A stretch of 32,525 bases of DNA from a virus (IMGVR_UViG_651053023_000008); one strand, 5' to 3'. Shown: positions 11,986 to 32,525, counted from the stretch's first letter. Notes: generated from the letters alone by a model not told the origin. Numbers and translations: made by a program.

Positions 11986-12209
11986 CCGACGAAATCGATC
12001 GCATCAGTGAAGTGGTTCTGAACGAGCGTCAGAGCGTCGTTAAAGCCTGGCAGACACGGACAAAAGAAGCGCCCCACAGCCGGGGCTTCTGCAATGACTG
12101 CGGGAACGTTATTCCGGCACAGCGCCTTGCGGCGCTGCCGGATGTGGTGACCTGTATTGACTGTCAGCAGATGCGGGAACGCAGGAGGAAATCGTGTCCT
12201 GGGAAATGA
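11982..12209 (+). CDS. TraR/DksA-type C4 zinc-finger protein
   Basis: 75 aa with CNDCGN...x17...CIDC four-cysteine motif. Confidence 0.7.
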   Translation: MTDEIDRISEVVLNERQSVVKAWQTRTKEAPHSRGFCNDCGNVIPAQRLAALPDVVTCIDCQQMRERRRKSCPGK

Positions 12210-12792: not shown

Positions 12793-12794
12793 GC

Positions 12795-13094: not shown

Positions 13095-13231
13095 AAAGAA
13101 TCCGATAAGTAAAGCGTCCCGTGATGAACTCCGCCGTCTGGCGCACAACCTGACATGGCGGGAAATCCAGAGCGGCGCACTGAAATCTGCATACGAAAGT
13201 TTACAGCGTAGTGAGCAACAGGAGGGCACAC

Positions 13232-13813
13232 ATGGAAAATGAACAACGCCCCACCCGTGGCCGTCTTTCCAAAGTGGATTTACTCCCGGACAGCATCCGG
13301 GAGCAGTTGCATCAGATGCTGCGGGAAAAGCGGCACACGCAGGAAGAAATCCGCGAAGCCATCAACGCCCTGATTGACGAACACAACCTGCCGGAAGAGA
13401 TGCAGTTAAGCCGGACGGGCTTAAACCGCTATGCCATCCGCATGGAAAAAGTCGGGGCAAAAATCCGTGCCTCCCGCGAAATGGCCGAAGTCTGGGCGGC
13501 AAAGCTGGGTTCCGCGCCGACGTCAGACGTCGGCAAACTGCTGATGGAGTTTGTAAAAACGCTGGCTTTTGAAACGTCCATGTCGATGGCAGAAGACGAC
13601 AAGCCCGTTGCACCGAAGGCGCTGGGGCAACTGGCGCTGGTTGCCCAGCGTCTGGAAGCGGCAGCCATGACCAGCCATAAACGCGAGAAAGCGATCCGTG
13701 ATGCGTTTGCGCAGGAGATGGCAGAGAAAACCGAAGAACTGGTCAGAACGGGCGGTCTGTCAGGCGGTGCGGCTGACACCATCAAACGAGACATTCTGGG
13801 GATTAGCGTATGA
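13232..13813 (+). CDS. Mu gp27-like protein (putative terminase small subunit)
   Basis: ATG 13232 with an AGGAGG ribosome-binding site at 13220-13225; position immediately upstream of the large terminase. Confidence 0.6.
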   Translation: MENEQRPTRGRLSKVDLLPDSIREQLHQMLREKRHTQEEIREAINALIDEHNLPEEMQLSRTGLNRYAIRMEKVGAKIRASREMAEVWAAKLGSAPTSDVGKLLMEFVKTLAFETSMSMAEDDKPVAPKALGQLALVAQRLEAAAMTSHKREKAIRDAFAQEMAEKTEELVRTGGLSGGAADTIKRDILGISV

Positions 13814-15345: not shown

Positions 15346-16913
15346 ACCTGAAACAACTGGCCGGGGCCGTTCGCCGTCTGCTGAACCCGGCAACCGGTGA
15401 GGAAGACACGCTGAAAAAAGAGGCGCTCAACGAAGCACAGGCACGTCCGCGTCATGCCAGTGTGCGTTCGGCCTCGCCGGGCGTCAGCATTGCTTCCGGG
15501 CTGAATCCCGGCAGGCTGGCAGGCATTCTGCGCAATGCTGCCGACGGCACCACGCGTGACTTTTTTATCCTTGCTGAAGAGATGGAAGAACGCGATTTGC
15601 ATTACGCCTCGGTGCTGCGCACCCGCAAGCTGACGGTGGCGGGTATCGAACCGGTGGTGGTGGCCGCCAGTGATGACGATGCTGACGTGCAGCTGGCGGA
15701 CGCCATCCGTGCACTGATGGAAGCACCGCAAATCCCTGAGCTGATGTTTGATCTGCTCGACGGGCTGGGAAAAGGCGTGGCGGTCTGTGAAATTTTGTGG
15801 AACACCCGCAACAACCACTGGGTGCCCCGTGATTATGAGTGGGTTGATCCCCGTTTTCTGAAAGCCGAAAAACCCACGCTGCGCCAGTTCCGCCTGCTGA
15901 CTGACGATGAACCGGTGGATGGCGTACCGCTGACACCGGGAAAATTCATTGTTCACCAGCCGCGCCTGAAATCCGGTCTGCCGCTGCGTAACGGTCTGGC
16001 CCGTCTGGTGGCGGTGATGTACATGCTGAAATCCTTTACCGTGCGTGACTGGTGGGCATTCGCGGAAAAGTTCGGCATTCCGGTTACGGTGGGGAAATAC
16101 GGTCCCAACGCCACGGAGGAGCAAATCCGCGTGCTGATTGACGCGATTGCGTCCATTGCCTCGGATGCCGGGTGTGCCATTCCGCAGTCCATGCAACTGG
16201 AGATGCAGGAAACTGCCAGCCGGAATAACGGCGGCGCACTGTTCTGTGAAATGGCGGAATGGTGTGATGCGCAAATCAGTAAGGCCGTGCTGGGGCAGAC
16301 CATGACCACGGATAACGGCAGTTCGCGCTCACAGGCGGACGTGCACAATCAGGTGCGCATGGACATTGTGCGCTGGGACGCGCGGCAGCTGGCTAACACG
16401 CTGAATGAATTTCTGGTGCGGCCCTACATCGAGGCCAACTACGGGCCACAGGCGCACTACCCCCGTGTTGTTCTGCGTATCAGTGAAGCCGAAGATCTGA
16501 AGGCGCTGACAGATGCTCTGGTGCCGCTGATTGACCGGGGGATGCGGGTTCAGGAATCGGAGCTGCGGGACCGGTTCGGCCTGGCTGAACCGGACGACGG
16601 GGCTGATGTTCTGCATCCGGTTTCTGCCGGAATGTCAGGTGATATGGCGATGAACCGCGAGCGCGTCGCCCTGAACCGTGAACACTCCGACGAACTGGCG
16701 CTGATGGTGGATGATGCCCTGCGTGACTGGCAGAAAACCGGCGAGGTGTTCACGAACCCGGTGCTGACACTGGCGCAGGAATGCGACAGTTTTGATGACT
16801 TTCTGAAACGCCTGCCTGAGCTTCAGGAAACGCTGAACGCGGACGACTTTGCCCTGCAACTGGCGGAGGTGTGCTTTAAGGCCCGTGCGCTGGGGGACAC
16901 TGCTCATGCGTGA
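15342..16913 (+). CDS. H: portal protein (Mu gp29 / H-like)
   Basis: 523-aa ORF following the terminase; Mu-like portal family by sequence pattern and position. Confidence 0.8.
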   Translation: MNLKQLAGAVRRLLNPATGEEDTLKKEALNEAQARPRHASVRSASPGVSIASGLNPGRLAGILRNAADGTTRDFFILAEEMEERDLHYASVLRTRKLTVAGIEPVVVAASDDDADVQLADAIRALMEAPQIPELMFDLLDGLGKGVAVCEILWNTRNNHWVPRDYEWVDPRFLKAEKPTLRQFRLLTDDEPVDGVPLTPGKFIVHQPRLKSGLPLRNGLARLVAVMYMLKSFTVRDWWAFAEKFGIPVTVGKYGPNATEEQIRVLIDAIASIASDAGCAIPQSMQLEMQETASRNNGGALFCEMAEWCDAQISKAVLGQTMTTDNGSSRSQADVHNQVRMDIVRWDARQLANTLNEFLVRPYIEANYGPQAHYPRVVLRISEAEDLKALTDALVPLIDRGMRVQESELRDRFGLAEPDDGADVLHPVSAGMSGDMAMNRERVALNREHSDELALMVDDALRDWQKTGEVFTNPVLTLAQECDSFDDFLKRLPELQETLNADDFALQLAEVCFKARALGDTAHA

Positions 16914-17670
16914 AACCTTCATCCCGAAAGAGGCGCTGGCGTGGCTGAAGGCGAAGAAGCTGCGCCCCGGTTTTGATTACCGGGATGTATGGCGGGAAGA
17001 ACACCGGAACAGCTTCACCGTGGCAAAAATGCTGCAACTGGATTTGTTGTCGGATGTGAAAGCCCTTGTGGAAGACGCCCTGCAAAGCGGGCAGACGTTC
17101 AGCGAGTTCCGGGAGATGCTGCAACCGTTGCTGATAAAACGCGGATGGTGGGGCGTACAGGAGATGGATGATCCGCTGACGGGTGAAACCCGCACCGTGC
17201 AACTGGGCAGCGACCGCCGCCTCCGCACGATTTTTGACACCAACATGCGCACCGCCCGCGCGGCGGGCCAGTGGGAACGCATTCAGCGGACAAAGCGGGC
17301 CATGCCGTATCTGATTTATGAGCTGGGGCCATCCCGTGAGCACCGGGCGGAGCATGTGAAATGGGCGCGTCTGTGTCTGCCGGTAGATCATCCGTTCTGG
17401 CAGACACATTTTGCCCCTAACGGCTGGGGCTGCAAATGCACCATCCGTCAGGTCAGCCGTGGTGAGTATGCGCAACTGGCGGCACAGGGCACCATTCACA
17501 CCGAAGCGCCGGAAATCAGAACTGTCCGCTGGGTGAACAAACGTACGGGCGAAGAGGAAGAGGTGCCGGAAGGGATTGATCCGGGCTGGAACTACAATCC
17601 CGGCATAAACCGTGAGCAGGAGCTGGCGCGCCAGCTGGCGACCAAACAGGCCCGTTTTGACAGTGAGTAG
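16906..17670 (+). CDS. F: head morphogenesis protein, Mu F family
   Basis: Internal ATG 16906 overlapping the portal stop; 254 aa. Confidence 0.7.
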   Translation: MRETFIPKEALAWLKAKKLRPGFDYRDVWREEHRNSFTVAKMLQLDLLSDVKALVEDALQSGQTFSEFREMLQPLLIKRGWWGVQEMDDPLTGETRTVQLGSDRRLRTIFDTNMRTARAAGQWERIQRTKRAMPYLIYELGPSREHRAEHVKWARLCLPVDHPFWQTHFAPNGWGCKCTIRQVSRGEYAQLAAQGTIHTEAPEIRTVRWVNKRTGEEEEVPEGIDPGWNYNPGINREQELARQLATKQARFDSE

Positions 17671-17812
17671 CCCTCCCGCCGTAAATCCCCCTGAAACGCA
17701 TCAGAAACGCGTTTTTTATTCTGATGGCGTGAATGTGCATTCTGACGTTTTTGAAGATGCTGTGGCGTTTTTGAAGGGGGTTTTGAAGGGGGTGTTTCCC
17801 CGTTTTCAGTGA

Positions 17813-17835
17813 AGCCGGTAAATCCGGCTTTTTTT
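17813..17835 (+). terminator. rho-independent terminator (second copy of the element found after mor)
   Basis: Stem AGCCGG 17813-17818, loop TAAAT, stem CCGGCT 17824-17829, T-run 17829-17835. Confidence 0.7.
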
Positions 17836-17884
17836 CTGCCTTCCGCATACTGACCGTCGGTAACCCCAAACGACGGAGACTGAC

Positions 17885-18847
17885 ATGCAACCGGAACTGC
17901 TGGCGCTGTGTTTTTCCCTGCCAGAACCCATCCCTGAGCTGACACCTGCTCAACTGCCGGAATGGCTTGAACTCGTCCCTGCGGGTGAGTTCACCGGGCG
18001 CGATGGCCGGACGTGGATTAACCGCAATCCGCATGAGGTGGTCACCCGCTCGTCCGACATCAAAATTCCGGTGGACATTGAACACGCCACCGAAATTAAA
18101 GGGCAACGCGGTGATGAAGCCCCGGCGTATGGCTGGGTGGAAGAACTGCGCGTGACGGACAGCGGCACCATTGAAGGCCGTGTTGTCTGGAGCGAGTACG
18201 CCCGGTGGATGCTGAGCGAACGCCGCTACCGCTATTACAGCCCGGCGTTTTTCTTTGACGCAGACGGTGTGGTGACGCGCCTGTCCAGCGTCGGGCTGAC
18301 CAACAAACCTAACCTGGACTTTCCTGCACTGAATACGGAGAAAAACCCGATGACAGTACCTGTGCAAATCACCGGCCTGCTTGGGCTGGCTGAATCTGCC
18401 ACGGTGGACGATACCGTGGCCGCCATTAAACAACTTCAGGAGAACGAACAGGTGGCGCTGAACCGCGCACAGACACCTGACCTGACGAAGTTTGTGCCGG
18501 TGGAAACCCACAATCTGGCACTGAACCGTGCCGAAACCGCAGAACAACGCCTTCAGCAACTGGAAGAGAAGGAAGCAGAAGCGCTTGTGGATGCGGCCAT
18601 CGAAGCCGGAAAAGTGGCCCCGGCAAACCGTGACATGTTCCTTGCCACCTGCCGCACGGAAGAAGGCCGCAAACAATTTGCGGAATACACCAAAGGTGCA
18701 CAGCCGCTGGTGAACAACGACAAGCCCAGCCAGGGCAAGGATAAACCCGCGCAGACACTGACCGACGCCGAACTGGCGATGTGCCACAGCATGGGTATTA
18801 CCGGGGAAGAGTTCCTCGCCGCTAAACCTAAACAGGAGAATAACTGA
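17885..18847 (+). CDS. I: head maturation protease and scaffold (Mu I family)
   Basis: 320 aa; N-terminal protease-like domain, C-terminal Ala/Glu/Gln-rich helical scaffold-like region; directly upstream of the major head gene. Confidence 0.8.
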   Translation: MQPELLALCFSLPEPIPELTPAQLPEWLELVPAGEFTGRDGRTWINRNPHEVVTRSSDIKIPVDIEHATEIKGQRGDEAPAYGWVEELRVTDSGTIEGRVVWSEYARWMLSERRYRYYSPAFFFDADGVVTRLSSVGLTNKPNLDFPALNTEKNPMTVPVQITGLLGLAESATVDDTVAAIKQLQENEQVALNRAQTPDLTKFVPVETHNLALNRAETAEQRLQQLEEKEAEALVDAAIEAGKVAPANRDMFLATCRTEEGRKQFAEYTKGAQPLVNNDKPSQGKDKPAQTLTDAELAMCHSMGITGEEFLAAKPKQENN

Positions 18848-19749
18848 TGGGAGCAGTCACTTCCGAAGTCCTTCACGCGCTGACCACCTGTCTGAGCGCC
18901 GCTTATACCCGTGGTCTGAGTGGTGTCACCCCACAATGGCAGCGCATCGCCTCTGAAATCCCGAGTTCGTCCGCTTCCAATACCTACGGCTGGATGAAAG
19001 ATTTACCGGAGATTAAGGAATGGGTCAGCGCCCGTCAGATGGCAACGCTGGACGGTTATGGTTACACCCTTGCGAACAAAACCTGGGAAAGTTCGATCCG
19101 CGTTAAACGCGAACACATTGAAGACGATCAGATTGGTCAGTACAGCATTATCGCTGAACGCTATGGCCGCCAGACGTCGGAGTTCCCGGACAAGCTGTGT
19201 TACCCCCTGCTGTGTGCCGGGTTTAACACCCTGTGTTTTGACGGTCAGAACTTCTTTGATGAAGACCACCCGCTGGGCGACGGCACCTGCAGCAACGTTG
19301 TCGGCACCCCGGCATCAGACCAGGGAGAACCGTGGTTCCTGATTGATGATTCTCAGGTACTGAAACCCATCATCTGGCAGACGCGACGCGCCTTTAAGTT
19401 TGAAGCCCTGGATGATCTGAACAGCGAGCACACCTTCAAGAATAACGAGTTCCTTTACGGGGTGGACGGTCGCTGCAATGCGGGCTTCGGCTTCTGGCAG
19501 ACCGCCGTCGGTTCCCGTGCGGCACTGACAGCGGAGAACTACGAGAAGGCCAGCAATCTGCTGCTGGGTATGAAGGCCACCAACGGTGAACCGCTGGGCA
19601 TCCGCCCGACCACCCTTGTGGTGGGGCCGAAAAACCGTGCAGCCGCGAAGCGCATCATTGACGCCATGCTGGTTAACGGCGGCGATTCCAACATCTGGTA
19701 CAAGGATGTGGACATCGTGGTCAGCCCGTTCATCACCACCCCGGCATAA
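18847..19749 (+). CDS. T: major head subunit (Mu T family)
   Basis: 300 aa, ATGA-coupled to I; matches the Mu-like major capsid protein family in length and position. Confidence 0.8.
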   Translation: MGAVTSEVLHALTTCLSAAYTRGLSGVTPQWQRIASEIPSSSASNTYGWMKDLPEIKEWVSARQMATLDGYGYTLANKTWESSIRVKREHIEDDQIGQYSIIAERYGRQTSEFPDKLCYPLLCAGFNTLCFDGQNFFDEDHPLGDGTCSNVVGTPASDQGEPWFLIDDSQVLKPIIWQTRRAFKFEALDDLNSEHTFKNNEFLYGVDGRCNAGFGFWQTAVGSRAALTAENYEKASNLLLGMKATNGEPLGIRPTTLVVGPKNRAAAKRIIDAMLVNGGDSNIWYKDVDIVVSPFITTPA

Positions 19750-19832
19750 CCCGTCATCCGTAATCTGTTGTAACCCGCAATGACTGGCTGATTAGCTGTA
19801 TCGGCACCAACCTGTCACCGCACCCGGCGTGG

Positions 19833-20426
19833 ATGTGGGCCGCGTCATACGGCGCAACGGCAGCGTATCACCTTGCCATTGACCCGGCGCGTCCGCTTCA
19901 GACGCTGGTCCTGACCGGCATTCTGCCGCCTGCGCGTAATGTTCGCTGGGATATGCCGGAACGTAACCTGCTGCTGCATGACGGCATTGCCACGCACATG
20001 GTGGACGCCGGGGATAACGTCTGCATAGAGCGTGAAATCACCATGTACCGGGTTAATCAGTACGGTGATGCGGATGTGTCGTACCTTGATGTGCAGTCAC
20101 CCGCCACGCTGGGCCGTATCCGTTACATCATCAAGAACCGTTTCACGAACCGTTATCCGCGCCACAAGCTGGCAGATGATGACGTGCTGGACTCACTGGA
20201 TGCCGGTCAGCCGGTGATGACGCCGAAGCTGTGCACCGCAGAGCTGCTGGATATCTGCCAGACCGAACTTATTCCTGCGGGCCTTGTGGAGAACTTCAGC
20301 GATTACAAGGACACGCTTCAGGTGACACGCGACAGCAGCGATAAAAACCGTCTGAACTTTATCTGTCACCCGAATCTGGTGAACCAGCTGCGTGTGCTGG
20401 CAGGCCTGATTCAGTTCAAGCTTTAA
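19833..20426 (+). CDS. hypothetical tail-region protein; possibly the C-terminal remnant of a contractile-sheath gene
   Basis: 197-aa ORF. The reading frame is open upstream to 19764 with no start codon and no ribosome-binding site before ATG 19833; it sits where the sheath gene would be in Mu. Confidence 0.4.
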   Translation: MWAASYGATAAYHLAIDPARPLQTLVLTGILPPARNVRWDMPERNLLLHDGIATHMVDAGDNVCIEREITMYRVNQYGDADVSYLDVQSPATLGRIRYIIKNRFTNRYPRHKLADDDVLDSLDAGQPVMTPKLCTAELLDICQTELIPAGLVENFSDYKDTLQVTRDSSDKNRLNFICHPNLVNQLRVLAGLIQFKL

Positions 20427-20435
20427 GGGGGCCGC

Positions 20436-20783
20436 ATGGCAAAAATTCTTGGCATGGCGACCATTCGCGTGAATGGCCGCGAAATTAAAACCGAGGGGAA
20501 ATCCACGCTGAATCCGGGCGGCTTCAGTCGCACCCAGCATATGGGCGGCGGCAAGGTCTGGGGTATCTCCAGCAAGATGGCCTCGCCGTCCATCAAGGTG
20601 ACCATTGCGGCGGCAGCGGATATGGACGTGATTGAAATCAGCAGCTGGGAAGACGTCACGGTGATGTTCTACGGCGACAACGGCCTGAACTACATGATGA
20701 CGGGTCCGCCACGGATAACCCGGCGGAGCTGGACGAGGATTCCGGCACCATCAGTGCGAACTTTATCGGTGAAAAATGCGTGA
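20436..20783 (+). CDS. tail tube protein (Mu M-like)
   Basis: 115 aa directly upstream of the chaperone and tape-measure genes. An alternative 3' end in another frame would stop at 20791. Confidence 0.55.
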   Translation: MAKILGMATIRVNGREIKTEGKSTLNPGGFSRTQHMGGGKVWGISSKMASPSIKVTIAAAADMDVIEISSWEDVTVMFYGDNGLNYMMTGPPRITRRSWTRIPAPSVRTLSVKNA

Positions 20784-20792
20784 AGGTGTGAC

Positions 20793-21288
20793 ATGGCTGA
20801 AATGGAATTTGAACTGAAACACGGGCTTCTGACCGGCAAAGGCACGGCAGATGAAACCCTGCATAAAACCGTGAAGCTGCGCGAACTGACCGCCAGTGAT
20901 GTGATTGATGCACAACTGGCCGCAGAACGCGTCGTCATGGGCGGGAACGGAAAGGCGGTGGCCTACTGCTCTGAAGTGCTGATGGGGCTGGAGATGATGC
21001 GCCGTCAGGTTGCGGCCATCGGCAGCATTCCCGGCCCGCTGGACATGAAACAGCTGCGAATGCTCCACCCGGCAGACCTTGAGCTTATCAGCACGAAAGC
21101 CGCTGCGCTGGATGACATGCTTGAGGAGGTGGCAACGCGGGGGCGAACTGATGCCGCTGGCGGCGGCACTGATGAACCTGCTGGTTAACCTGTCCCAGCG
21201 ATTCAGCATTCAGTACCTGGAACAGCTGCCCCTGCGGCAGCTGTTCCGCCTGATAAAGCAACTGGAGAAACAGCATGGCAACAGGTAA
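20793..21288 (+). CDS. tail assembly chaperone with a putative programmed frameshift (short product 20793-21188; extended product to 21288)
   Basis: Two overlapping frames; the second frame has no independent ribosome-binding site and ends at the tape-measure start. G5 run at 21139-21143. Confidence 0.6.
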
Positions 21289-23122
21289 CCGTCTCAGCAC
21301 GGAAATCATGATCAACCTTGCCGGGAACCTGACCGCCAAAGCCCGGCAATACGGCGCAAATATGTCGCAGTTCGCCCGGAATCATCAGAAGGCCATGCGC
21401 CTTGTCAAAGCCACAACGGAGGCCGCAGGACGCGGCCTTGATACGCTGGGTAACCGCTACACGGCGATGATTGCCGGGTTCGGTGGTGGTATGACCCTTA
21501 AAGGCCTGACAGATTTTGATGCACAAATCCGCCGTGCGGGTACAAATGCAAAACTGACCGATGAGCAGGTATCCCGTTTAAGAAAAAACATCCGGGAAAC
21601 AGCCAGAATGTCAGACATTCGCCTCAGTGCGCAGGTTTTACTGGAAGGCCAGGATGCACTGTATGGCCTGACAGGTAAGCCGGAATTTGTTGAAAAAAAT
21701 ATCCGCAATCAGGGGCTGGCCACGCAGGCATTCGGGACTGCGCCACAGGATGTCGCGGCACTGATGGCACAGATGTCCGAAAAACAGATTGAAGATCCTC
21801 AGGAAGTTGAAGACATGTTCGACCGCTTCTACCACCAGTTTTCCATTGGTTCGGTTGGTGTGGATCAACTGGCGCGCGTATCAGCAAAACTGTTTTCGAT
21901 TTATACCGGTGGTGGCAAAGAGGCGATGGCCCAGTTGGGGGCACTTGAGCAGATGCTGGCGAAAACAACCGGTTCTGCAGATGAAGCGGTAACCGCGCTG
22001 AACAGTATCTGGAGTGAAGTCACCCGAAAAGACAACATCAAGTTTCTGAAAAGAAACGGTGTTGATGTGCTTGATCCAGTCACAGGGAAACCCCGTCTGC
22101 CCTATGACGTGATCAGAGACGTTGTCAGGCGGGCAAAATTTAATGAGCAGAATTTGCAGGATGTTTTCGGGGACACCTCCATGCGGGGATTAAGGGCGCT
22201 GTCCAGTGAAGAAGCCCTTCAGTTAACAGAAAAAATGATTTACGCCCCGGTTGAATCCGGTGCCATGAAAAAAGCCGCGGAGAAAAACGCCCAGAGTTTT
22301 CAGTCTGCGATGCAGTCCCTGAAGAATGAATATGAGGTTTTTGCTGAAAAAAATCTGGCAAAACCCGTTCAGGACCTGGCGGATGCGCTCAACAGCGTGG
22401 ACCAGAACACCGTCCAGAACTGGTTGCAGGTCGGTAAATATATGGCGATTGCTGTGGGCGGCATTATCGCCATCCGAAAAACGTACCAGTTAGGTAAAAC
22501 CCTCCACGACATCATGAATCCCAAAGGGAAAGGCAAAGGAATACCCGGTGGCATTACAGATGTTTTCGGCTCCGGTGTGATGCCGGTTTATGTGGTTAAT
22601 ATGGGCAGTGGCGGGATGAATGGTAATACCGGCGGTCTGCCGGATACACCAGATTCATCGCGCAATCCCCGCAATCCTCGGGGGCCGGGTAACCGTGGAG
22701 GAAAGGCAGGTAAAGGCGCTGGCATCATTGCCGGTGCTCTGGAGTTTTACGATTTTCTGACCACACAATACGCCCTGCCGGGTGAGGTTGACAGTCTCAC
22801 TAAATCCGTTGCCGGTGATGCCAGCGCCAGCCCGCGGGAGCGCGAGTTCGCGCAACAGAGTCAGGACAACCAGAAAGCGCTCGAGTCCGTCTGGCGTAAG
22901 GTAACGGACTGGTTTGACTCGCTGAACGGGAAGAACATCGGCGGGATGCCGTCATGGGGTGGAATGCAACCCTCGCAGCTTGCACCGTTTCTTTCTCAAC
23001 AATTGCAGGGGGAAATCCGCGTGGTGGTGGAAGGTGACGCCCGCGTGAAAAGTGTCAGAGTGGATCAACCCGGCGTCAGACTCAGTGCGCAGGCTGGCGT
23101 CACCAGCGTGGAGCAAGGGTAA
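21275..23122 (+). CDS. tail tape measure protein
   Basis: 615 aa; helical with a Gly-rich hydrophobic segment; preceded by the frameshifted chaperone. Confidence 0.75.
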   Translation: MATGNRLSTEIMINLAGNLTAKARQYGANMSQFARNHQKAMRLVKATTEAAGRGLDTLGNRYTAMIAGFGGGMTLKGLTDFDAQIRRAGTNAKLTDEQVSRLRKNIRETARMSDIRLSAQVLLEGQDALYGLTGKPEFVEKNIRNQGLATQAFGTAPQDVAALMAQMSEKQIEDPQEVEDMFDRFYHQFSIGSVGVDQLARVSAKLFSIYTGGGKEAMAQLGALEQMLAKTTGSADEAVTALNSIWSEVTRKDNIKFLKRNGVDVLDPVTGKPRLPYDVIRDVVRRAKFNEQNLQDVFGDTSMRGLRALSSEEALQLTEKMIYAPVESGAMKKAAEKNAQSFQSAMQSLKNEYEVFAEKNLAKPVQDLADALNSVDQNTVQNWLQVGKYMAIAVGGIIAIRKTYQLGKTLHDIMNPKGKGKGIPGGITDVFGSGVMPVYVVNMGSGGMNGNTGGLPDTPDSSRNPRNPRGPGNRGGKAGKGAGIIAGALEFYDFLTTQYALPGEVDSLTKSVAGDASASPREREFAQQSQDNQKALESVWRKVTDWFDSLNGKNIGGMPSWGGMQPSQLAPFLSQQLQGEIRVVVEGDARVKSVRVDQPGVRLSAQAGVTSVEQG

Positions 23123-24396
23123 TGACAACAGGCAATGGCAAATGGGACGGGCTGCGCGACGCCTCGTTTCGCGGCGTTCCCTTCTTTCTGGTGGATACAG
23201 AAGGCACCGGTGGCCGCAGGGCTATTCCCCGTGCTTACCCCCGGCGTGAAACCGCCTGGACGGATGATAACGGGGCCGTTCCCGGTCAACAACAGATTAA
23301 CGCAAAGCTGCCAGGTAAAAACTTCCGGGATGATTTAAACGCCCTTTTAGACGCGCTCAATACCCCAGGCCCCGGCGAGCTTATCCACCCGTGGTTCGGG
23401 ATACAGACCGTACAGGTTGGCAAGGTCACTCATCGCCTCAGCACGGAGGAAGACGGCATTGCGTATGTCACCTTTGAAGTGTTTGAGGCAGGCGAGCGCC
23501 TGTTCCCGTCTGCGGCGGATAACACGCAGCAGGAAGTGCTAACGGGCATTGATGCGGTGAAAGCCGCCATTGACGATGGCGACTGGTTCGGCGCACTCGA
23601 CGGGCTGGGTGAGATGGCCGACAGCTTTCTGGCCGATATGGAAAACCTTGTGGCTAACCTGCCCACGCTACCGGCAGCACTGAATCAGTGGATGGACAGG
23701 CTGAACCATTTTAAGGAGATGGCCGGAACCATCATTGCCACGCCGGGGCGTCTGGTCAGTGAGTTGTCCTCGTTCATCGACGGCGTGGTTGATCTGGTGA
23801 CGGAACCACCCGAAGCACTCGCGGTTTACACGACATTACGCAACCAGTGGGTCGGAGAACGCGCCCGACAGGTTGCCACCGGCGCACTGCCGGAAGATAT
23901 CACCGTGAAGCCAGGCAGCGTGGCAGACGGCGAAATCGGCTTTGCCATCGGTCTGTCACCGGGTTATCAGCCGGTATCTGACAGCCTGCAAAAGAACATT
24001 GATGACTTCCGCCAGGTGGTTGTGCTGGAAACCCTGCTGGGACAGGCAAATGCCGTGGCCTCGATGACGTTCGATACCAGTGATGCGGCATTATCTGCTG
24101 GTGACACGCTGGCGGCTGAACTGCATGAGCAGGCGGTGGCGGCGGTGGAAAATAACCAGCGGGCATTATGGCGAACGCTGCGCGATTTACGGCAGGCCGT
24201 GATTACGGATGCCCGCGAGCGTGCCGCCCGTCTGCCGGAAACCCGACAGGTGACGCTGACCACAACCACATCTGCCGCATTGCTGGCATGGCGCGAACAT
24301 GGTGACACAAGCCGACGGGATGAAATCGTGCAGCGTAACCGCCTGCGCCATCCGTCATTCATCCTGCCAACGCAACCAGTGGAGATTACCGACTGA
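23122..24396 (+). CDS. P: DNA circularisation protein-like tail protein (Mu P family)
   Basis: 424 aa; N-terminal region resembles the Mu gp43 N-terminal domain; position after the tape measure. Confidence 0.65.
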   Translation: MTTGNGKWDGLRDASFRGVPFFLVDTEGTGGRRAIPRAYPRRETAWTDDNGAVPGQQQINAKLPGKNFRDDLNALLDALNTPGPGELIHPWFGIQTVQVGKVTHRLSTEEDGIAYVTFEVFEAGERLFPSAADNTQQEVLTGIDAVKAAIDDGDWFGALDGLGEMADSFLADMENLVANLPTLPAALNQWMDRLNHFKEMAGTIIATPGRLVSELSSFIDGVVDLVTEPPEALAVYTTLRNQWVGERARQVATGALPEDITVKPGSVADGEIGFAIGLSPGYQPVSDSLQKNIDDFRQVVVLETLLGQANAVASMTFDTSDAALSAGDTLAAELHEQAVAAVENNQRALWRTLRDLRQAVITDARERAARLPETRQVTLTTTTSAALLAWREHGDTSRRDEIVQRNRLRHPSFILPTQPVEITD

Positions 24397-25467
24397 TGGA
24401 ATCCGTGATTCTTACCGTTGACGGCAAATTGTGGGAAGGCTGGACGGAAATGTCCGTCAGCCGTTCCCTGAAGGCGATTGCCGGTGAGTTTGATCTCAGT
24501 GTGACAACCCGCTGGTCAGCGGCGGCACCGCGCGTGATACGTGAGGGGCAACCCTGCACGGTCAGGCTGGGTGCGGATACCGTGCTGACAGGGTATATCG
24601 ATGATTTTATCCCCAGCTATGACGCAGATAACGTGGAGATTCGCGTCATGGGGCGCGACAAAAACCGGCGACCTGGTGGACTGCTCTGTGGTGCATTCAT
24701 CCGGGAAATGGAAAGGCGTGCGGCTGGAACAGGTAGCGGCTGATGTCTGCCGCCCGTTCGGGATAGCCGTCATCACGGAAACCCCGACCGGGGAGGCGTT
24801 TGCGTCCGTTGTTCTGGAACAGGGTGAAACGGGCTTTGAACTGCTCGACCGGCTGGCAAAACAGCGCGGCGTTCTGCTGACGTCTGACGGCGCAGGTAAC
24901 CTGATTATCACCCGCGCCTCTTCCGTTCGCGCGGGCGTGTCACTGGTGCTGGGGAAAAATATCCTCGCCGCCCGTGGGCGCTTCAGCTGGCGGGAGCGTA
25001 ACAGCCAGTACATCATCAAGGGCACCACCAGTGCCGGTGGCAAACTGTGGGACAGCCAGCCTGCCTCGATGGTGGGTGGTCGCCAGTACATCACCGAAGA
25101 CCCGGAAATTAACCGTTACCGCCCGCGCATTCTGGTCAATGAAGACAGCCTGACCGTGGGCGGGGCCAGCATTCGCGGGGAATGGTACAAAGCCCGGATG
25201 CTGGGGGAATCCCGCACGACGGAAATCACGGTGGCAGGCTGGCGCGAACAGGGCGACAGCGGCCCGCTGTGGCAGACCAACCGCCTTGTCGATATCGACG
25301 ACAGCATTCAGAACCTGAAAACCACCTGGCTGATATCCGGGGTGACCTGGACGGATGGCGCACAGGGGCGGATGACGGTTCTGGCGCTGGTTCCGCCTGA
25401 ATCACTGGATATGCCGGAAATGAAAGCGAAGACGAAGAAAACAAAGGCGGTGGCCACATGGGATTAA
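24396..25467 (+). pseudogene. baseplate hub protein (Mu Q-like) with a +1 frameshift in an A5 run (24660-24664)
   Basis: ORFs 24396..24743 and 24601..25467 join into one 357-aa product (..VMGRDKTGDLVDCSVV..) if one A is removed. Confidence 0.6.
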
Positions 25468-25994
25468 ACGCAATTGCCCGCCGTCTGCGGCTGCTGGTTG
25501 ACCGTGCCGTTGTGCGCATGGTGTCTGACAGTCTGGAGCGGCAGAACCTGCAAATCCAGACGCTGGCTGATGCCACCGACGACGACGTGGAACGCTTCCA
25601 GAACTACGGGTTTACTTCCGTTCCGCCGGAAGGTTCTGAAGCCATCGTGCTGGCCGTGGGCGGACGGCGTGACGGGCTGGTTGCCATCGCGGTGGAGGAC
25701 AAGCGATGTCGCCCGAAAGGCCTGTCCCCCGGTGATGTCCGGCTGTATCACCAGGACGGTAAATCGCATATCACGTTAAAGAAAGGCGGAATTATTGAAA
25801 TCACAGGAGAACAATTAAACGTTTCAGGGAAAACGGTAAATCTCACCGCCGACGAATTGCTGAATATTATCGGTAAACAAATGAAATTCGTCGGTCCCTG
25901 TGAATTTACTGCAGATGCCACAATCAACGGTAAATCTTTCATCAAACACATTCATAAGGACGGCGACAATGAGAAGACATCACCGCCCATATGA
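25458..25994 (+). CDS. baseplate spike protein (gpV-like)
   Basis: 178 aa, overlapping the end of the Q-like gene; position in baseplate cluster. Confidence 0.55.
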   Translation: MGLNAIARRLRLLVDRAVVRMVSDSLERQNLQIQTLADATDDDVERFQNYGFTSVPPEGSEAIVLAVGGRRDGLVAIAVEDKRCRPKGLSPGDVRLYHQDGKSHITLKKGGIIEITGEQLNVSGKTVNLTADELLNIIGKQMKFVGPCEFTADATINGKSFIKHIHKDGDNEKTSPPI

Positions 25995-26443
25995 CGACCG
26001 GAATCCGCTGGAATAATACTCTCTCACGGGGTGACATCACCGTCACCCATAACGGCCTCTCACTGGATGAGGGGCTGGTCACTCAGGTTCTTATCTGCCT
26101 TTTCACTGATGCCCGTGCTGATGACGATGATGTCATTCCAGATGGTTCCGGCGACCCGCGCGGCTGGCCGGGCGACACGTACAGCGATTTTTCGTGGGGT
26201 TCCCGCCTGTGGCTGCTTGAGCGCGAAAAACTGACGGAAGATGTCCGCCTGCGCGTGGAGGATTACGCGCGACTGTCCATGCAACCGCTGCTGCGGGCCG
26301 GTTACGCCCGTAACGCCACCGTCACGGCCAGAATCATCGTCCCTGACCGTATTGCCTTTCAGGTGGTGTTAACCCGCCCGGACAAAACCACGCTCACAAT
26401 CGAAATCACCCGCCGATGGGAGGCCACCATTAATGCCGTATGA
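25991..26443 (+). CDS. baseplate protein (Mu gp46-like)
   Basis: 150 aa, translationally coupled between the spike and J-like genes. Confidence 0.55.
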   Translation: MTTGIRWNNTLSRGDITVTHNGLSLDEGLVTQVLICLFTDARADDDDVIPDGSGDPRGWPGDTYSDFSWGSRLWLLEREKLTEDVRLRVEDYARLSMQPLLRAGYARNATVTARIIVPDRIAFQVVLTRPDKTTLTIEITRRWEATINAV

Positions 26444-27510
26444 AATCCCCACGCTGGGCAAACTGATTGCCGACGGCGAAAAAGATATTGCGTATGAACT
26501 CGGCCTGCAAAAGCTGCCGCCTGTCAGTGTTGAGCAGGCGCTGAATGTGTCATTCAGCAGTCAGGTCCGGGATTTATACGACCATCAGAGCTGGATCAAG
26601 GACCAGATAATTCCGTCCACTACGTCTGATGATGAAACCATTATCAAAAACAGCAACGTATGAAGGGGTTATCCGCAAGCAGGCCACCTTTGCCAGCGGG
26701 CCGGTGACCTTCACCAGTCAGTCCCCCATTCCGGCAGAAACCCGGATGCAGTCCGACACGAATCAGGTGTATCAGGTACTCACATCCGGCGAGGTACAGG
26801 ACGGCGAGGTCACTGTCATCGTGCAGGCTGAAGAAGCCGGTGTGGCGGGCAATCTTGCTGCCGGTGCCGTGCTGACCCTGTTATCCCCGCTACCCGGAAC
26901 GGGCAGCACAGGCGCGGTGACTGAAAGTGGCATCACCGGTGGCGCAGACATCGAATCCATCGCAGAGCTGCTGGACCGTCTGCTGTATGTGCGCCGCAAT
27001 CCCCCGGTGGGCGGTGCACTGCATGATTACGTCATCTGGGCGCGTGAAGTGCCGGGTGTCAGCCGCGCGTGGGCATGGGATGCGTGGCACGGCCCCGGCA
27101 CGGTCGGGCTGGCATGGCTTTATGATGACCGTGAAGACATTATCCCCACACGGGACGACCTGAAGACAATGGAGCAGTATCTGTTCTGCCACAAACACCC
27201 TGCCACCGGCGTGATGGTGGGCAAACCGGGCGGCATCGAGGTCTGGCCGGTGCAGGTCAGGCTGAAGAAGCTCGACCTGTCCATCCGTCTGACACCGGAC
27301 AGCCAGGCGAACAGGAACGCCGTCCGGGCAAACCTGACCGCATTGCAGAAAACGCTGGCCCCCGGTCAGATGCTGCCGGTGTCCTCGCTGCGCACGGCCA
27401 TCGGTATGACGTCCGGTATCACGGATTACTTCCTCAACATCGGGGAGGACACCACCAGTGATGTGGATGAGCTTATCACCATCGGGGAGGTGACATGGCT
27501 CACAGCGTGA
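26433..27510 (+). pseudogene. baseplate J-like protein (Mu gp47-like) with a +1 frameshift in an A5 run (26646-26650)
   Basis: ORFs 26433..26663 and 26629..27510 join into one 359-aa product (..DDETIIKTATYEGVIRKQATFASG..) if one A is removed. Confidence 0.6.
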
Positions 27511-28079
27511 CGGAATGGCTGACCGCACTGCAACAGGTCATGCCACGGGGTAAGGCATGGCCGCGTGATAACGACGCGGATTTAAACCGTTTTTTAAGGG
27601 CGCTTGCAGAGCGTTTAACCCGCGTTGAATACGACGCCTCGCGTCTGCATGTGGAGATGCGACCGGAAACCACGCTCCAGTTGCTGCCGGAGTGGGAGCA
27701 ATATCTGGCGCTGCCGGAATGCGGAATTGCCGCCACCACAACGGAAGCCCGCCGCCGGGCCGTGGTGGAGAAATACCGCCGCAAAGGCGGGCTGGCCACC
27801 TGGCAGATTGAAGCCGCTGCGGCGGCGCTGGGATTCACTATTAAGGTGACGGCCGTTCTGCCGCACCACTGCCTGCGTGACTGCATGTACCCGCTACATC
27901 CGGCGCGGTATCGCTGGCTGCTGAAAGTGGAAGTCCCGGACAAAGATGCCGGGCGGTTTACCTGTATTGATGACGTCATGACGCCATTAATCAGCGAACG
28001 GACCCGCGAGCTGGAATGCCTGCTGAAGCATTACCGGCTGGCGGGCACGGAATATGAATATTATTACACCGGAGAATAA
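27495..28079 (+). CDS. tail protein (Mu gp48-like)
   Basis: 194 aa following the J-like gene. Confidence 0.55.
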   Translation: MAHSVTEWLTALQQVMPRGKAWPRDNDADLNRFLRALAERLTRVEYDASRLHVEMRPETTLQLLPEWEQYLALPECGIAATTTEARRRAVVEKYRRKGGLATWQIEAAAAALGFTIKVTAVLPHHCLRDCMYPLHPARYRWLLKVEVPDKDAGRFTCIDDVMTPLISERTRELECLLKHYRLAGTEYEYYYTGE

Positions 28080-28082
28080 TTT

Positions 28083-28970
28083 ATGTTTCATGTGGATAAT
28101 CCGACGGGTGTGCCAGTGATGCCACCTGTCGCGGCTGAATTAAGCAAAACAACGCTTTATTTTACCGAAGGCGGGAACGGTATTCCGCCCACTTATCCGG
28201 GGCCGGACTGGTTTAATATTATTCAGTCTGAACTGCTGGAAATTCTCCGGCAGGCAAATATCAAACCGGATAAAAACACAACCGACCAGATTATGACAGC
28301 GCTGAAAAAAACTGTTTATTACGAACAGTGGTTCAGCCGGAGCTATTGCCGGATTAACCGGTCAGAATAATACGTTCCCGTATTTTACGGCGAAGACACA
28401 ATGGCATTAACGCCGCTCAGTGCTTTTGTGCGCGGTATTCTCGGGAAAAACACAGCCGGTGAAATTATCGACGCGCTTTTATTACGTGACACGGTAAATA
28501 AAGCTAATAGTGCTGTACCGAATACCCGCAGGGTCAACGGCATGGCTCTGTCTTCGGATATCACCATCAGCAACATCAGCGGCAACGCCGGAACGGCAAC
28601 CCGACTTCAGACGGCCCGCAGGATTAACAATGTGCTGTTTGATGGCAGCCGCGATATCACGATTTCTGCGGGAATGTCACAAACTGAAGGTGACAACCGT
28701 TACCAGCAAAAAAACACGGCGTCAAAAGCCGGTAATGGCTGGTTTAAGGACACGTCCACCGGGGTGATTATTCAGTGGGGGTATCTCGGCAATGCCAGTG
28801 CCGGGCTGACGTTTCCGATATCATTTCCGTCAGCATGTACCAGCATCACTATTACCAACGCATACACCCGTGCTGATTACTCTATTTCCCTGAAATCGTT
28901 ATCAGCAGCAGGTGCGACATTCAACAGCGAGAATAACGGCGTTATGTACTGGACAGCGATAGGGTATTAA
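28083..28970 (+). pseudogene. tail fibre gene (S-like) interrupted by two compensating indels (extra A in the A7 run 28305-28311; likely missing G at 28389-28390)
   Basis: Conserved fibre N-terminus (MFHVDNPTGVPVMPPVAAELSKTTLYFTEGGNGIPP). The fibre motif GLTGQNNTFPYFT is encoded in frame +1 between the two ORFs; the C-terminal ORF 28401..28970 continues with MALTPLSAFVRGILGK. Confidence 0.55.
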
Positions 28971-29410
28971 TGATGACTATTTATTTCAGCCCATCAACAA
29001 ACGGTTTTTATCATTCTGGCCTTCAGGGTGATTATGAAAATGCGGGAACGTGGCCGAATGATTTACAGGAAATCACGGATGAAGAATATCAGAGACTGTT
29101 ACAGGGCCAGACTGACGGTTTTATTATTGTATCTGGCGAAAACGGATATCCGGTATTAAAAGAACCCGTAATTAACTGGCAGCAGAAAGCGGAAACGCAA
29201 CGCCAGCACCTGCTGGCTGAAGCAAGGGAAATCACCTCCGACTGGAAAACCGAGCTGGAGCTGGGCACCATCAGCGACGATGATAAAGCCCGTCTTACGC
29301 AGTGGATGGCATATATCAAAGCGGTAAAGGCACTGGATTTAAGCACCGTTACTGACGAAGACTCCTTTTATTCCATCAACTGGCCGGAGCGTCCCGATGC
29401 CGCAGCTTAA
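28970..29410 (+). CDS. tail fibre assembly chaperone (Tfa-like)
   Basis: 146 aa immediately after the fibre gene; Tfa-like sequence. Confidence 0.7.
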   Translation: MMTIYFSPSTNGFYHSGLQGDYENAGTWPNDLQEITDEEYQRLLQGQTDGFIIVSGENGYPVLKEPVINWQQKAETQRQHLLAEAREITSDWKTELELGTISDDDKARLTQWMAYIKAVKALDLSTVTDEDSFYSINWPERPDAAA

Positions 29411-31004
29411 AGGTGTGATTAAAACGCCCACGGGAGAACCGCTGGGCGGCGCAACCATTACATTGACCTCCCTGCACAACCGCGCAGGGATTCTGAAAAG
29501 TGTTTTCAGCCATGTCACCACACAGAACGGGGAATATGACTTCCCCGTTCTGCCGGGTGTGTACAGCGTTCGCCTGACACAAAGCACACAGCGCCTTTCA
29601 GAAATCGGTGTCATCCGCGTTTATGAAGATTCAGCGGACGGTTCGTTGAATGATTTTCTGGGTGCAACCGATATTGACCTGCGCCCGGAAGCCCTGAAGA
29701 AATTCGAAGAGCTGGCGCAACAGGCGCAGCAAAGCGCAGAAGCCGCAGCGGAAAGCGAGCGACAGGCCGGGCAACATGTCGCTGATGCGCAGAAGATAAA
29801 GAAAGACTGTCAGACGCTGGCGGATAACGTACAGCAGAACGCAGAAGCCGTAGCGGCCAGCAAACAGCACGTTGAACAGCTGGCCTCAGAAGTTGAGCTG
29901 AACGCCGGGCAGGTGCAGCAGGGCGTGCAGAATGTTACTGATGCGGTAAAAAAGGCGCAGCAGGCAGCAAAGGATTCTGCTGACAGTGCCACAGATTCGA
30001 AAAACAGTGCTGACAATGCGGCACTGAGCGAACAGAACGCACAAAAACACGCGCAGAAAGCTGAACAACACGAGCAGCAGACTAAACAATATGCGCAGGA
30101 TGCAGCGACCGCCGCAGAATCAGCAGAGAACGCCAAAGGCGAAATTGACGAAATTCTGGAAGGTGGCTATCTCAAGATAAAAAACAACTTTCAGGAAATT
30201 GTTGATGCTGGCCCGTCAGCACTGGCTCAGGCCCAATGGAATTTACAGATTTCCGGGGTGAAAAATAAACAGGTAATTGCCACCCCTTATACATGGCCAT
30301 CCAGAACTGAGTATGAACAAAGGGTGCATCTGCCACTCGCCGGGGCTTACGGATTTGGCTACACATTTGAAGACCAAAGCCAGGGGCGAATAAATTTTAA
30401 TGAGGGCTATACGGCGTCGTGGTGGTCACAGTGGGCGAAACCTGGTCGTTATTACGTCAGCGCCAGTGATAAAGAATACCTCGCACCTGAAGGAGAAAGG
30501 TGGGGGATTGTTGATTTGCTGTGGCTTAATGGCAGCGGATATAACGATGCTTCGAAGGTTCTGAAGATACTGGCTTTTTACGACTCAGACGGGCACTTAC
30601 ACATAGGCAAGCGCGTTGGTCAGAGCGACTGGTCAATAAGCTGGCGCAAGCTGGCATCGCTCTCTGATGTCAGGGCCATGCTGTATTCATATATTTATAA
30701 TAATTACAACAGAGAATGGCGAGACCCGGAACTGGGAGGTTTAATTCTGGCGTCATACCAGGGAACCGCAGACGGCGACACAAATATAAAAGTATCCCGT
30801 GGTCAGACTTATCCCGGCTCGCGACTCGCTCCTGTGGCGATAGAATGCCAGTTCACCCCATCCGGCACGTATGCTGCAACACCGCGATTCTACATTACCG
30901 GCTGCAAGAGCAAATCACTCCCCGGAACTTATATTTCATTGTCTGGCGCGCCAACAACATACAGCGACCAGGCATTTGTTGCGCTATTCATGAGGATTGT
31001 ATGA
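29397..31004 (+). CDS. side tail fibre protein (lambda Stf-like N-terminus, coiled-coil shaft, C-terminal receptor-binding region)
   Basis: 535 aa; N-terminus parallels lambda Stf (..TITL......VYSV.L......IRVYEDS.DGSLNDFL); long Ala/Gln/Glu-rich helical shaft; AT-richer 3' third. Confidence 0.75.
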   Translation: MPQLKGVIKTPTGEPLGGATITLTSLHNRAGILKSVFSHVTTQNGEYDFPVLPGVYSVRLTQSTQRLSEIGVIRVYEDSADGSLNDFLGATDIDLRPEALKKFEELAQQAQQSAEAAAESERQAGQHVADAQKIKKDCQTLADNVQQNAEAVAASKQHVEQLASEVELNAGQVQQGVQNVTDAVKKAQQAAKDSADSATDSKNSADNAALSEQNAQKHAQKAEQHEQQTKQYAQDAATAAESAENAKGEIDEILEGGYLKIKNNFQEIVDAGPSALAQAQWNLQISGVKNKQVIATPYTWPSRTEYEQRVHLPLAGAYGFGYTFEDQSQGRINFNEGYTASWWSQWAKPGRYYVSASDKEYLAPEGERWGIVDLLWLNGSGYNDASKVLKILAFYDSDGHLHIGKRVGQSDWSISWRKLASLSDVRAMLYSYIYNNYNREWRDPELGGLILASYQGTADGDTNIKVSRGQTYPGSRLAPVAIECQFTPSGTYAATPRFYITGCKSKSLPGTYISLSGAPTTYSDQAFVALFMRIV

Positions 31005-31570
31005 TGCAGATTAAAGAAATCACCAGCCCCCGTTATACCGAATCCGGTGCGATTGACTGCGACGTTCTGTTTGAGGAAATGGAAGCCCCTGTTCCCTACA
31101 CTGCCACGCCGGACGATACAGCGAAAACCGGTCAGCAAATCTGGCAGGAACTGCAAAGCGGAAAATGGGGTGAAATAACCCCGTTTGCCGTCACGCCGGA
31201 ACTTATCGCAGCGGCGAAGGATGCCAAAAAACGGGAGATTGAGGCATGGCGCACAGAACAGGAGGCGCAGCCATTCACGTTCGAATGGAACGGTCGTACC
31301 TGGAATGCTGGTCCCGATTCGATGGCTCGCATTGCGCCCGTGGCAATGGCCGCAAAAGTGGCAGGTGCACGGGCAACGCTGGGGTGGGGGGATGCAGCAA
31401 ACAGCCTTGTCACCATGACAATGGCGCAGCTTCAGGAGCTGGCAGCAACAATGGCGCAGGCGCAAACCGAGCGCAATACTGTGATTTATCGTCGTCAGCG
31501 TGAGATGAAAGAGCAGCTTTCCCTGTTGACCACACTGAACGAAATAAGAGCATTCACACCCGGCGATTAA
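31001..31570 (+). CDS. tail fibre assembly protein or chaperone
   Basis: 189 aa; ATG overlaps the fibre stop. Confidence 0.55.
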   Translation: MMQIKEITSPRYTESGAIDCDVLFEEMEAPVPYTATPDDTAKTGQQIWQELQSGKWGEITPFAVTPELIAAAKDAKKREIEAWRTEQEAQPFTFEWNGRTWNAGPDSMARIAPVAMAAKVAGARATLGWGDAANSLVTMTMAQLQELAATMAQAQTERNTVIYRRQREMKEQLSLLTTLNEIRAFTPGD

Positions 31571-31693
31571 ATAATCATTTTGTATAGTTTATGACGATCG
31601 ATAACATCATATCGATCGTCGGTTTGCATCATATGTGATTAAATACCCCCAGCCCTCCGGGCGGTCATGTCTGGTTATTACACAGGGGGAATC
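31571..31693 (+). promoter_or_regulatory. com and mom promoter region with Dam GATC sites (31596-31599, 31614-31617) inside 7-bp inverted repeats
   Basis: GATCGAT ... ATCGATC arrangement directly upstream of com, consistent with the methylation-sensitive upstream region of the Mu mom operon. Confidence 0.55.
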
Positions 31694-31879
31694 ATGGACT
31701 CTGTTCGCTGTAAAAACTGCAATAAATTACTGTTTAAAGGAGGTTTTAAGCATATAGAAATTAAATGCCCTCGCTGTAAACGTTACATTGTCATATCGAA
31801 TGCCAAAGAGCATCCCACGGAGCTGTATTGTGGGAAAAGAGAAGAAATCACGCATTCTGACAAAACCCTGCGTTATTGA
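31694..31879 (+). CDS. com: Com zinc-finger translational activator of mom
   Basis: 61 aa from ATG 31694 (AGGGGGA ribosome-binding site); CKNC...x16...CPRC zinc finger; overlaps the mom start. Confidence 0.85.
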
Positions 31880-32525
31880 GTATGAAGGTCGTATTGTCGG
31901 CTATGGTTCAAAGGAGCTACGTGTTGAAACCATATCCTGCTGGCTGGCCCGCACAATCATTCAGACAAAACACTATTCCCGCCGTTTTGTGAATAACTCC
32001 TACCTGCATCTTGGCGTATTCAGCGGACGTGATCTGGTTGGCGTTCTTCAGTGGGGATATGCCCTTAACCCCAACTCAGGGCGTCGGGTCGTGCTTGAAA
32101 CGGATAACCGGGGCTATATGGAACTGAACCGCATGTGGCTACACGACGACATGCCCCGCAACTCTGAATCACGGGCTATCAGCTACGCGCTGAAAGTTAT
32201 CAGGTTACTGTATCCGTCAGTTGAGTGGGTTCAGTCTTTTGCAGACGAACGCTGCGGACGTGCTGGCGTGGTATATCAGGCGTCGAATTTTGATTTTATT
32301 GGTAGCCATGAAAGCACGTTCTACGAGCTGGACGGCGAGTGGTATCACGAGATAGCGATGAACGCGATTAAGCGCGGAGGGCAACGAGGCGAGTATTTGC
32401 GGGCTAATAAGGAGCGGGCCGTGGTACACAAATTTAATCAGTATCGCTACATCAGGTTCCTGAACAAGCGCGCAAAAAAGCGCCTAAACACCAAGCTATT
32501 CAGGATTCAGCCATACCCGAAGTGA
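31800..32525 (+). CDS. mom: Mom DNA modification protein
   Basis: ORF overlapping the 3' end of com and ending at the window edge; sequence matches Mu Mom as I recall it. Start uncertain (ATG 31800 or GTG 31830). Confidence 0.85.

Follow-up and report, generated by a model that had tools for sequence, protein, structure and literature searches.

Mu-like prophage and its baseplate hub gene

The window, by which the whole 32,525-nt stretch of DNA analysed is meant, corresponds to a Mu-like prophage that sits between the genes treA and dhaM in a 2011 assembly of Escherichia coli UMNF18. Its gene layout was Mu-like: a repressor, ner, the transposase A (3105-5093) and B (5132-6091) came first, and the right edge carried com and mom. 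The prophage abuts treA, and the left end of the window (1-1827) was 99.9% identical to E. coli with 0 indels. Among 15 billion proteins, both a 95-aa fragment encoded at 28083-28370 (AEJ56152.1) and a 211-aa fusion encoded at 10754-11389 (AEJ56130.1) were found in UMNF18 only. Among 5,426 complete RefSeq E. coli genomes, a set from which the UMNF18 record is absent, no match to the hub region exceeded 98.7%. The strain was reportedly described by Shepard et al. in 2012, and the platform of its assembly was probably 454 pyrosequencing. PMC4358887 gives UMNF18 as a porcine ETEC with the accession AGTD00000000.

The following features were found at the hub locus.

23122-24396, plus strand: Mu N/gp43-like DNA circularisation gene (Pfam DNA_circ_N); with a stop codon that overlaps the start codon of the hub gene (TGATG)
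24396-25467, plus strand: Mu P/gp44-like hub gene, a 356-codon ORF once the run is A4
24396-24743, plus strand: ORF1 as deposited; hub residues 1-89 (domain 1), then 26 out-of-frame residues and a stop
24601-25467, plus strand: ORF2 as deposited; hub residues 90-356 (domains 2-4) behind a stretch of 21 residues that are out of frame
24660-24664, plus strand: A5 run; the extra A shifts the frame past codon 89 (GAC AAA / ACC GGC), and relatives have A4
25458-25994, plus strand: Mu Q/gp45-like baseplate spike gene (Pfam Phage_Mu_Gp45)
25991-26443, plus strand: GP46 gene (Pfam GP46), downstream of the gp45 homologue

The hub gene was split as deposited. The five A's lay exactly at 24660-24664, directly after GCGCGAC, in the context GGGGCGCGAC-AAAAA-CCGGCGAC, and the two ORFs (115 aa, and 288 aa in the +1 frame) overlapped by 143 nt. 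The first-pass annotation had held that these ORFs would fuse if the run lost one base, and this was borne out: deletion of one A turned 24396-25467 into one ORF of 356 codons (...RVMGRDK/TGDLVDCS...), in which the A4 run spanned codons 88-90. A single uninterrupted ORF of about 356-380 codons was missing as deposited, and it was present in the relatives and after removal of one A. Only GpP-like_1st (residues 4-88) was found by Pfam in ORF1; in ORF2, Gp44-like_2nd and GpP_4th were above the cut-offs, and Phage_GPD was weak and under the cut-off. The exact ORF1 product was not found in the gene index, and the exact ORF2 product was not found in the protein collection. The frame break coincided with the boundary of hub domains 1 and 2.

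The gene had earlier been named a Q-like hub, which was incorrect. According to Pfam and PDB 1WRU it is Mu P/gp44, and the homologue of Q/gp45 is the next gene (25458-25994). With PF21683, PF22255, PF05954, PF21929 and PDB 1WRU as the reference for the hub family, the repaired protein contained GpP-like_1st (4-88), Gp44-like_2nd (90-173), Phage_GPD (31-319) and GpP_4th (258-338), all above the curated cut-offs. Residues 3-341 matched Mu gp44 (PDB 1WRU) with an E value of 5e-64, and residues 2-348 matched the 43-kDa tail protein of Shewanella prophage MuSo2 (PDB 3CDD) with an E value of 1e-102. These alignments were gap-free across the repair point at GRDKTGDLVDCS. Furthermore, the gene lay between the DNA circularisation gene and the gp45 spike gene, its position in a Mu-type tail module, and the relatives shared this order. 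The repaired hub was exactly the protein P0121 (100%), encoded by at least 49 contigs of NCBI, Logan and ENA, and intact copies with an identical amino-acid sequence were common in E. coli. In addition, the exact upstream protein was found in three drafts (L010-L012) with an intact hub next to it; this hub had 356 aa in L010 and L012, and the L011 copy ended at the contig end.

Run length at the hub site in related prophages

The run was A4 in all 19 aligned relatives. In complete E. coli genomes, nine related prophages, each at another chromosomal site, carried A4 (9/9), and in eight of them the annotation gave an unbroken product of 356-357 aa, named "phage baseplate assembly protein". The ninth, ETEC1732, was flagged "frameshifted" at a different run. 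A run of the hub gene also differed between the sister assemblies ETEC1732 and ETEC1734 (G4 vs G5), PGAP calling ETEC1732 "frameshifted"; run-length errors therefore happen in the hub gene itself. Orthologues of intact phages were not split at the A run in the way that would have counted for a real A5. This length was absent from all 45 complete E. coli genome records with the locus (75-nt query centred on the run; a one-base gap in every match), and with the codon-degenerate pattern for GRDKTGDLVDC the A4 version was found on at least 120 IMG/VR contigs and the A5 version on none. The phage GenBank collection gave a single distant match, Klebsiella phage Kp4866-3, which at 68% identity was useless for a one-base question.

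These data bear on whether the A5 could be real and functional, with recoding (+1 ribosomal frameshifting or transcriptional slippage) or a phase switch yielding a domain-1 product together with some full-length hub. The break does fall exactly between Pfam domain 1 (4-88) and domain 2 (90-173) and, as read from the sequence, AAA-A would let tRNA-Lys re-pair in the +1 frame. However, we find this explanation hardly credible. The site showed no conservation, every orthologue having an in-frame A4; the codon after the run was the common AAC, neither rare nor a stop; no slippery heptamer was present; and the same kind of change occurred at six unrelated sites of the assembly, one of them intergenic. 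A phase-variable site would be a long tract with a length varying among strains, and here a length of 5 was confined to the window, every relative having 4. Efficient transcriptional slippage or phase variation needs a run of more than five A's. Both programmed frameshifting and phase switching were rejected, the site being unconserved and without supporting context. There is likewise next to no likelihood that the extra A is real in UMNF18 and that an occasional +1 slip of tRNA-Lys on AAA-A would make an incipient recoding site at the domain boundary.

Deletion in the structural gene region

About 2.9 kb was missing from the window compared with every intact relative, from just past the major-head gene to about codon 272 of the sheath gene. 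The lost genes were gp36-like, virion-morphogenesis and DUF2635, together with two small ORFs that matched no family; the sheath gene lost its codons from 1 to about 272. Two features marked the lesion.

19772-19779, plus strand: deletion junction, with one copy of the 8-bp direct repeat AACCCGCA
19833-20426, plus strand: ORF after the deletion, a remnant of the sheath C-terminus

The identical junction occurred in an independent Logan assembly, L013 (SRR26621191), so the deletion is genuine and the prophage defective. Misassembly as the origin of the deletion was rejected, since L013 has the same junction at the 8-bp direct repeat. No complete RefSeq E. coli genome contained the junction. The element therefore carries another, independent inactivating lesion in this 2.9-kb deletion. 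L013 was identical to window 19408-21146 except for the tail tube indel described below, and it had the consensus run length at all three of the sites that it covered. On this comparison, the run-length changes are to be regarded as no part of the inherited decay.

Other run-length changes in the window

Six further changes of one base were found.

10994-10996, plus strand: one A lost (A3 vs A4), joining a gp18-like ORF (83 aa) and the ORF after it (136 aa) into ORF 10754-11389
17776-17780, plus strand: one G gained (G5 vs G4), intergenic between a Mu F-like gene and the protease gene; G4 in 21/21 relatives
20701-20704, plus strand: one base lost (GGGT vs GGGGT or GGGTT), putting the final 29 codons of the tail tube gene (ORF 20436-20783) out of frame
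26646-26650, plus strand: one A gained (A5 vs A4), splitting the baseplate J/gp47-like gene into 26433-26663 and 26629-27510
28305-28311, plus strand: one A gained (A7 vs A6) in a fibre-like gene (Gp53-like_C; 28083-28970); 15/15 relatives shorter
28387-28391, plus strand: one base lost in the same fibre-like gene, 83 nt downstream; 15/15 relatives one base longer

The signature had previously been said to recur in three other genes. This was true and slightly understated, since four other coding regions were broken or fused and one intergenic site was affected. At 10994-10996 all eight relatives had A4, including L029 from the same insertion site. One base more was present at 20701-20704 in 27/27 relatives, and the shifted tail tube product of 115 aa was not on record. 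The J run was A4 in 18/18 relatives, and apart from its extra A, L010 and L012 matched window 25282-26909 at 100%. In the fibre-like gene, the change at 28305 gave the 95-aa product AEJ56152.1, on record for UMNF18 only; the loss at 28387-28391 regains the frame, but past the stop at 28368-28370. Reverting the sites gave proteins 100% identical to intact ones for the hub (7 loci), J (L023), the fibre-like protein (L023, once both runs were reverted), the tube (25 loci) and gp18 (4 loci, L029 from the same site among them).

Relatives at the same insertion site

Two draft assemblies, L029 and L031, carried the same prophage adjoining treA. Over window 1-13925, L029 showed four substitutions and a single indel, which lay at 10993 (A3 vs A4). 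It agreed with the window at the runs A7 7162, T5 10160 and G5 13074, which are genuine lineage variants because they are common to L029. Two others, L023 and L021, had dhaM, dhaL and dhaK on the right flank of the prophage. They represent the right half of the same insertion, since dhaM is the neighbour of treA in E. coli K-12. Over 8.2 kb (window 24307-32525), L023 showed two substitutions and four run-length differences (24660, 26646, 28305 and 28388). It had A4 at the hub run, and all its genes were intact. Neither the same-insertion relatives L023 and L029 nor the deletion-sharing L013 had inherited the run-length lesions of the window.

Private variants in the window and in control loci

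A variant was counted as private where the window differed from every aligned relative at the position. The window was aligned to 37 loci, and 16 control loci were tested likewise. Over its 32.5 kb the window had seven private single-base indels and two private substitutions (182 and 7416). Four of the indels were insertions and three were deletions; six were coding and one was intergenic. A single one of these sites fell in the left 13.9 kb, and none fell in the host flank of 1.8 kb. The true length of the affected run was four or fewer in six cases, and the remaining one was an A6 read as A7. Longer runs agreed with the relatives at 25/25 informative runs of six bases, at 7/7 informative runs of seven bases and at the one run of eight bases.

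Twelve of the 16 controls had no private indel, and none had a comparable excess of indels over substitutions.

Seven draft or Logan controls: 0 private indels, 0-16 private substitutions
Five complete-genome controls: 0 private indels, 88-379 private substitutions
L006 (complete genome): 5 private indels, one of them a +1 in a C run; 323 substitutions
L008 (complete genome): 2 private indels; 98 substitutions
ETEC1734: 5 private indels, two of them single-base in runs (both PGAP "frameshifted"); 146 substitutions
GCA_000194535.2 (2011 draft): one private single-base run change; 0 substitutions

The private indels of L006 and L008 were mainly multi-base and frame-preserving. Isolated examples similar to those of the window were seen in assemblies of related prophages, namely ETEC1732/ETEC1734 and GCA_000194535.2.

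The spectrum was compared with that of mismatch-repair-deficient E. coli, which was used as the most indel-rich natural comparison. Mutation accumulation in such strains gave 6.02 substitutions vs 0.85 small indels per CDS (PMC8510543). The ratio of indels to substitutions was roughly 1:7 there and 7:2 among the private changes of the window. By our own calculation from the PMC8510543 spectrum (indel fraction 0.14), at least seven indels among nine private changes would arise with P of about 3e-5. The spectrum fits miscalling and not decay, because the indels are private and exceed the substitutions to this degree.

It could still be proposed that the frameshifts are real, replication slippage in short runs having hit the hub, J, tube, fibre-like and lysis-region genes after the deletion and left recent pseudogenes in a decaying prophage. 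The prophage is indeed defective, an independent assembly having the deletion at the 8-bp repeat as well, and there would be no selection against frameshifts in it. Slippage by one base in a run is also the commonest natural indel, with a rate that varies with run length (PMC8510543). Moreover, truncated hubs are known in other lineages, such as P0085 of Shigella dysenteriae, a "Mu P family protein" with 251 aa that occurs on 95 contigs. We regard real slippage as unlikely all the same. None of the seven indels was common to any relative, L013, L023 and L029 included, and their excess over substitutions is the reverse of what is found even without mismatch repair. Two indels of opposite sign only 83 nt apart in the fibre-like gene, with no substitution between them, are improbable by mutation, and most controls had no private indel at all. 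Were the frameshifts real, they would add no more than a routine case of pseudogene formation by slippage in a Mu-like prophage that is dead already.

A chimeric assembly of two co-resident Mu-like prophages of 98-99% identity, with unreliable merged run lengths, was also considered. The window was made up of 2-3 kb blocks of two alternating haplotypes, one like L032 and the other like L013/L017/L023, and drafts with the same insertion broke their contigs at about 13.9 kb and 23.2 kb, as expected of a repeated prophage middle. However, both haplotypes had equal run lengths at 7/7 sites, so merging should leave the length unchanged. The blocks were clean, without site-by-site mixing, and are equally compatible with natural phage mosaicism. 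A chimera is therefore highly improbable as the source of the changes, and it is in any case a variant of the error explanation instead of an alternative to it.

Origin of the split hub gene

The extra A and the six other run differences are private to the window, private substitutions are nearly absent, and repair of the runs gives known intact proteins. A sequencing error is expected to be a single base in a run, private to one assembly, with near-identical relatives at the consensus length, and to recur as gains and as losses, inside and outside coding DNA, in excess of private substitutions; this was the pattern found. Error is favoured because 7/7 indels are private and in excess over substitutions, because one case is intergenic, and because paired changes of opposite sign lie 83 nt apart. 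Judged from these comparisons, the hub split is very probably an ordinary artefact, a homopolymer-length miscall in the deposited assembly, and the gene would not be truly split. An A4 in a Mu P/gp44-type hub would have been recorded as A5, producing an apparent +1 frameshift at the boundary of domains 1 and 2. One-base over- or under-calls in short runs at six other sites would explain the remaining "broken" or "fused" genes. The cause in all likelihood lies in base calling or consensus building and not in mutation of the strain DNA. The affected runs were mostly short and almost all long runs were correct, whereas pyrosequencing error should rise strongly with run length; this somewhat weakens the pyrosequencing picture.

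The first-pass annotation had left the choice between a decaying prophage and homopolymer error. For the frameshifts the evidence favoured the second proposal over decay, as they were private, absent from L023 and in the ratio of 7 to 2. Decay was upheld solely as the real 2.9-kb deletion common to an independent assembly. The significance of the result is limited to data quality, the UMNF18 record having about one run-length error in every 4-5 kb here. Apparent pseudogenes, fusions and "hypothetical" fragments from it, such as AEJ56130.1, AEJ56152.1 and WP_244422676.1, should not be read as biology, and because the record carries run-length errors, UMNF18 fragments are unfit for scoring prophage decay.

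Comparison with known systems

Like the programmed or phase-variable sites (+1 in prfB, -1 in dnaX and tail chaperones, homopolymers of contingency loci), the hub site combined a frame change with an A run. It differed from them in being unconserved, without stimulatory context and only five bases long. The window also resembled slippage pseudogenisation in having a homopolymer frameshift inside a defective prophage with a real inactivating deletion. In contrast to such pseudogenes, the frameshift was not inherited by the relatives sharing the deletion or the site, and it came without accompanying substitutions.

The window also agreed with the homopolymer miscalls of pyrosequencing, ion-semiconductor and nanopore data, which are likewise single-base, confined to runs, private, found in coding and non-coding DNA, and reversible to known proteins. 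Unlike typical miscalls, those of the window mainly affected short runs (true length of four or fewer), and almost all longer runs were right.

The protein itself was in agreement with Mu gp44 (PDB 1WRU/9KI1) and the MuSo2 protein (3CDD), with the same four Pfam domains and an end-to-end alignment. The gene order was as in Mu: N/gp43, P/gp44, Q/gp45, gp46, J/gp47 and gp48. The split is thus an artefact, with little doubt, and not new biology; both the gene and the type of prophage are well known, the sole difference from the Mu gp44/MuSo2 system being one extra A in the deposited DNA that splits the frame.

Deletion and private substitutions

The loss of about 2.9 kb from the window is genuine, and its junction was placed as follows.

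Window 19772-19779: deletion junction, with ~2.9 kb lost between 8-bp direct repeats (AACCCGCA)

The identical junction was present in L013 (SRR26621191), an independent Logan assembly, and was absent from all complete RefSeq E. coli genomes. The gp36-like, virion-morphogenesis and DUF2635 genes were lost with the deletion, together with two more small ORFs that matched no family, and the tail sheath was deprived of its first ~272 codons (affected ORF, 19833-20426). Only two substitutions in the whole window were private, that is, different from every aligned relative. They were found at positions 182 and 7416, one within treA and the other close to where the Gam-like gene (7384-7908) begins.

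Lineage variants shared with a same-insertion assembly

Three runs, T5 (10160-10164), A7 (7162-7168) and G5 (13074-13078), differed in length from those of most relatives. The same lengths were found in L029, a draft assembly with the same insertion and the treA flank, and they are therefore real lineage variants rather than errors. These runs of the window are useful as an internal control. Furthermore, the GH108 endolysin gene was divergent at its C-terminal end (window 10720-10740), where its length differed from that of most relatives by a net 9 bases, in frame. This segment is a real allele, because it was also present in L029.

Block mosaic of the window

Two haplotypes, named after the related loci that they resemble, alternated in blocks along the window (12898-24362 and onward).

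Window ~1-12897, 15046-18006 and 21117-24362: L032-like haplotype
Window ~12898-15153, 18007-21146 and 24363 to the end: L013/L017/L023-like haplotype

The mosaic could have arisen by natural recombination between Mu-like prophages, or it could reflect contig-level chimerism of two co-resident prophage copies. Contigs of the same-insertion drafts broke at ~13.9 kb and ~23.2 kb of the window, which suggests a second prophage copy in this lineage.

Run lengths and hub variants in other assemblies

A run in the baseplate hub gene differed between the sister pig ETEC assemblies ETEC1732 (L002, NZ_CP122823) and ETEC1734 (L001), and the gene was annotated as 'frameshifted' in the former and intact in the latter. 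In addition, ETEC1734 possessed private run-length changes in the sheath gene (A6) and a tail-assembly gene (C2). The treA-dhaM insertion was also present in L021 (GCA_000194535.2, AFAB02000106.1), a further 2011-era draft. L021 had no private substitutions, and its sheath was split into 310 + 157 aa by a private T2-to-T3 change.

Window-equivalent 24545: G4/G5 difference between L002 and L001 in the hub gene
Window-equivalent 19872 (L021 position 1436): T2-to-T3 change

Truncated or fused hub variants were also found in other lineages (P0085, P0059 and P0069). For example, Shigella dysenteriae 155-74 has a 'bacteriophage Mu P family protein' of 251 aa, which occurred on 95 contigs, and another variant, likewise of 251 aa, carried GpP_4th together with Glyco_hydro_108. 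Therefore, real decay of the hub gene may occur elsewhere.
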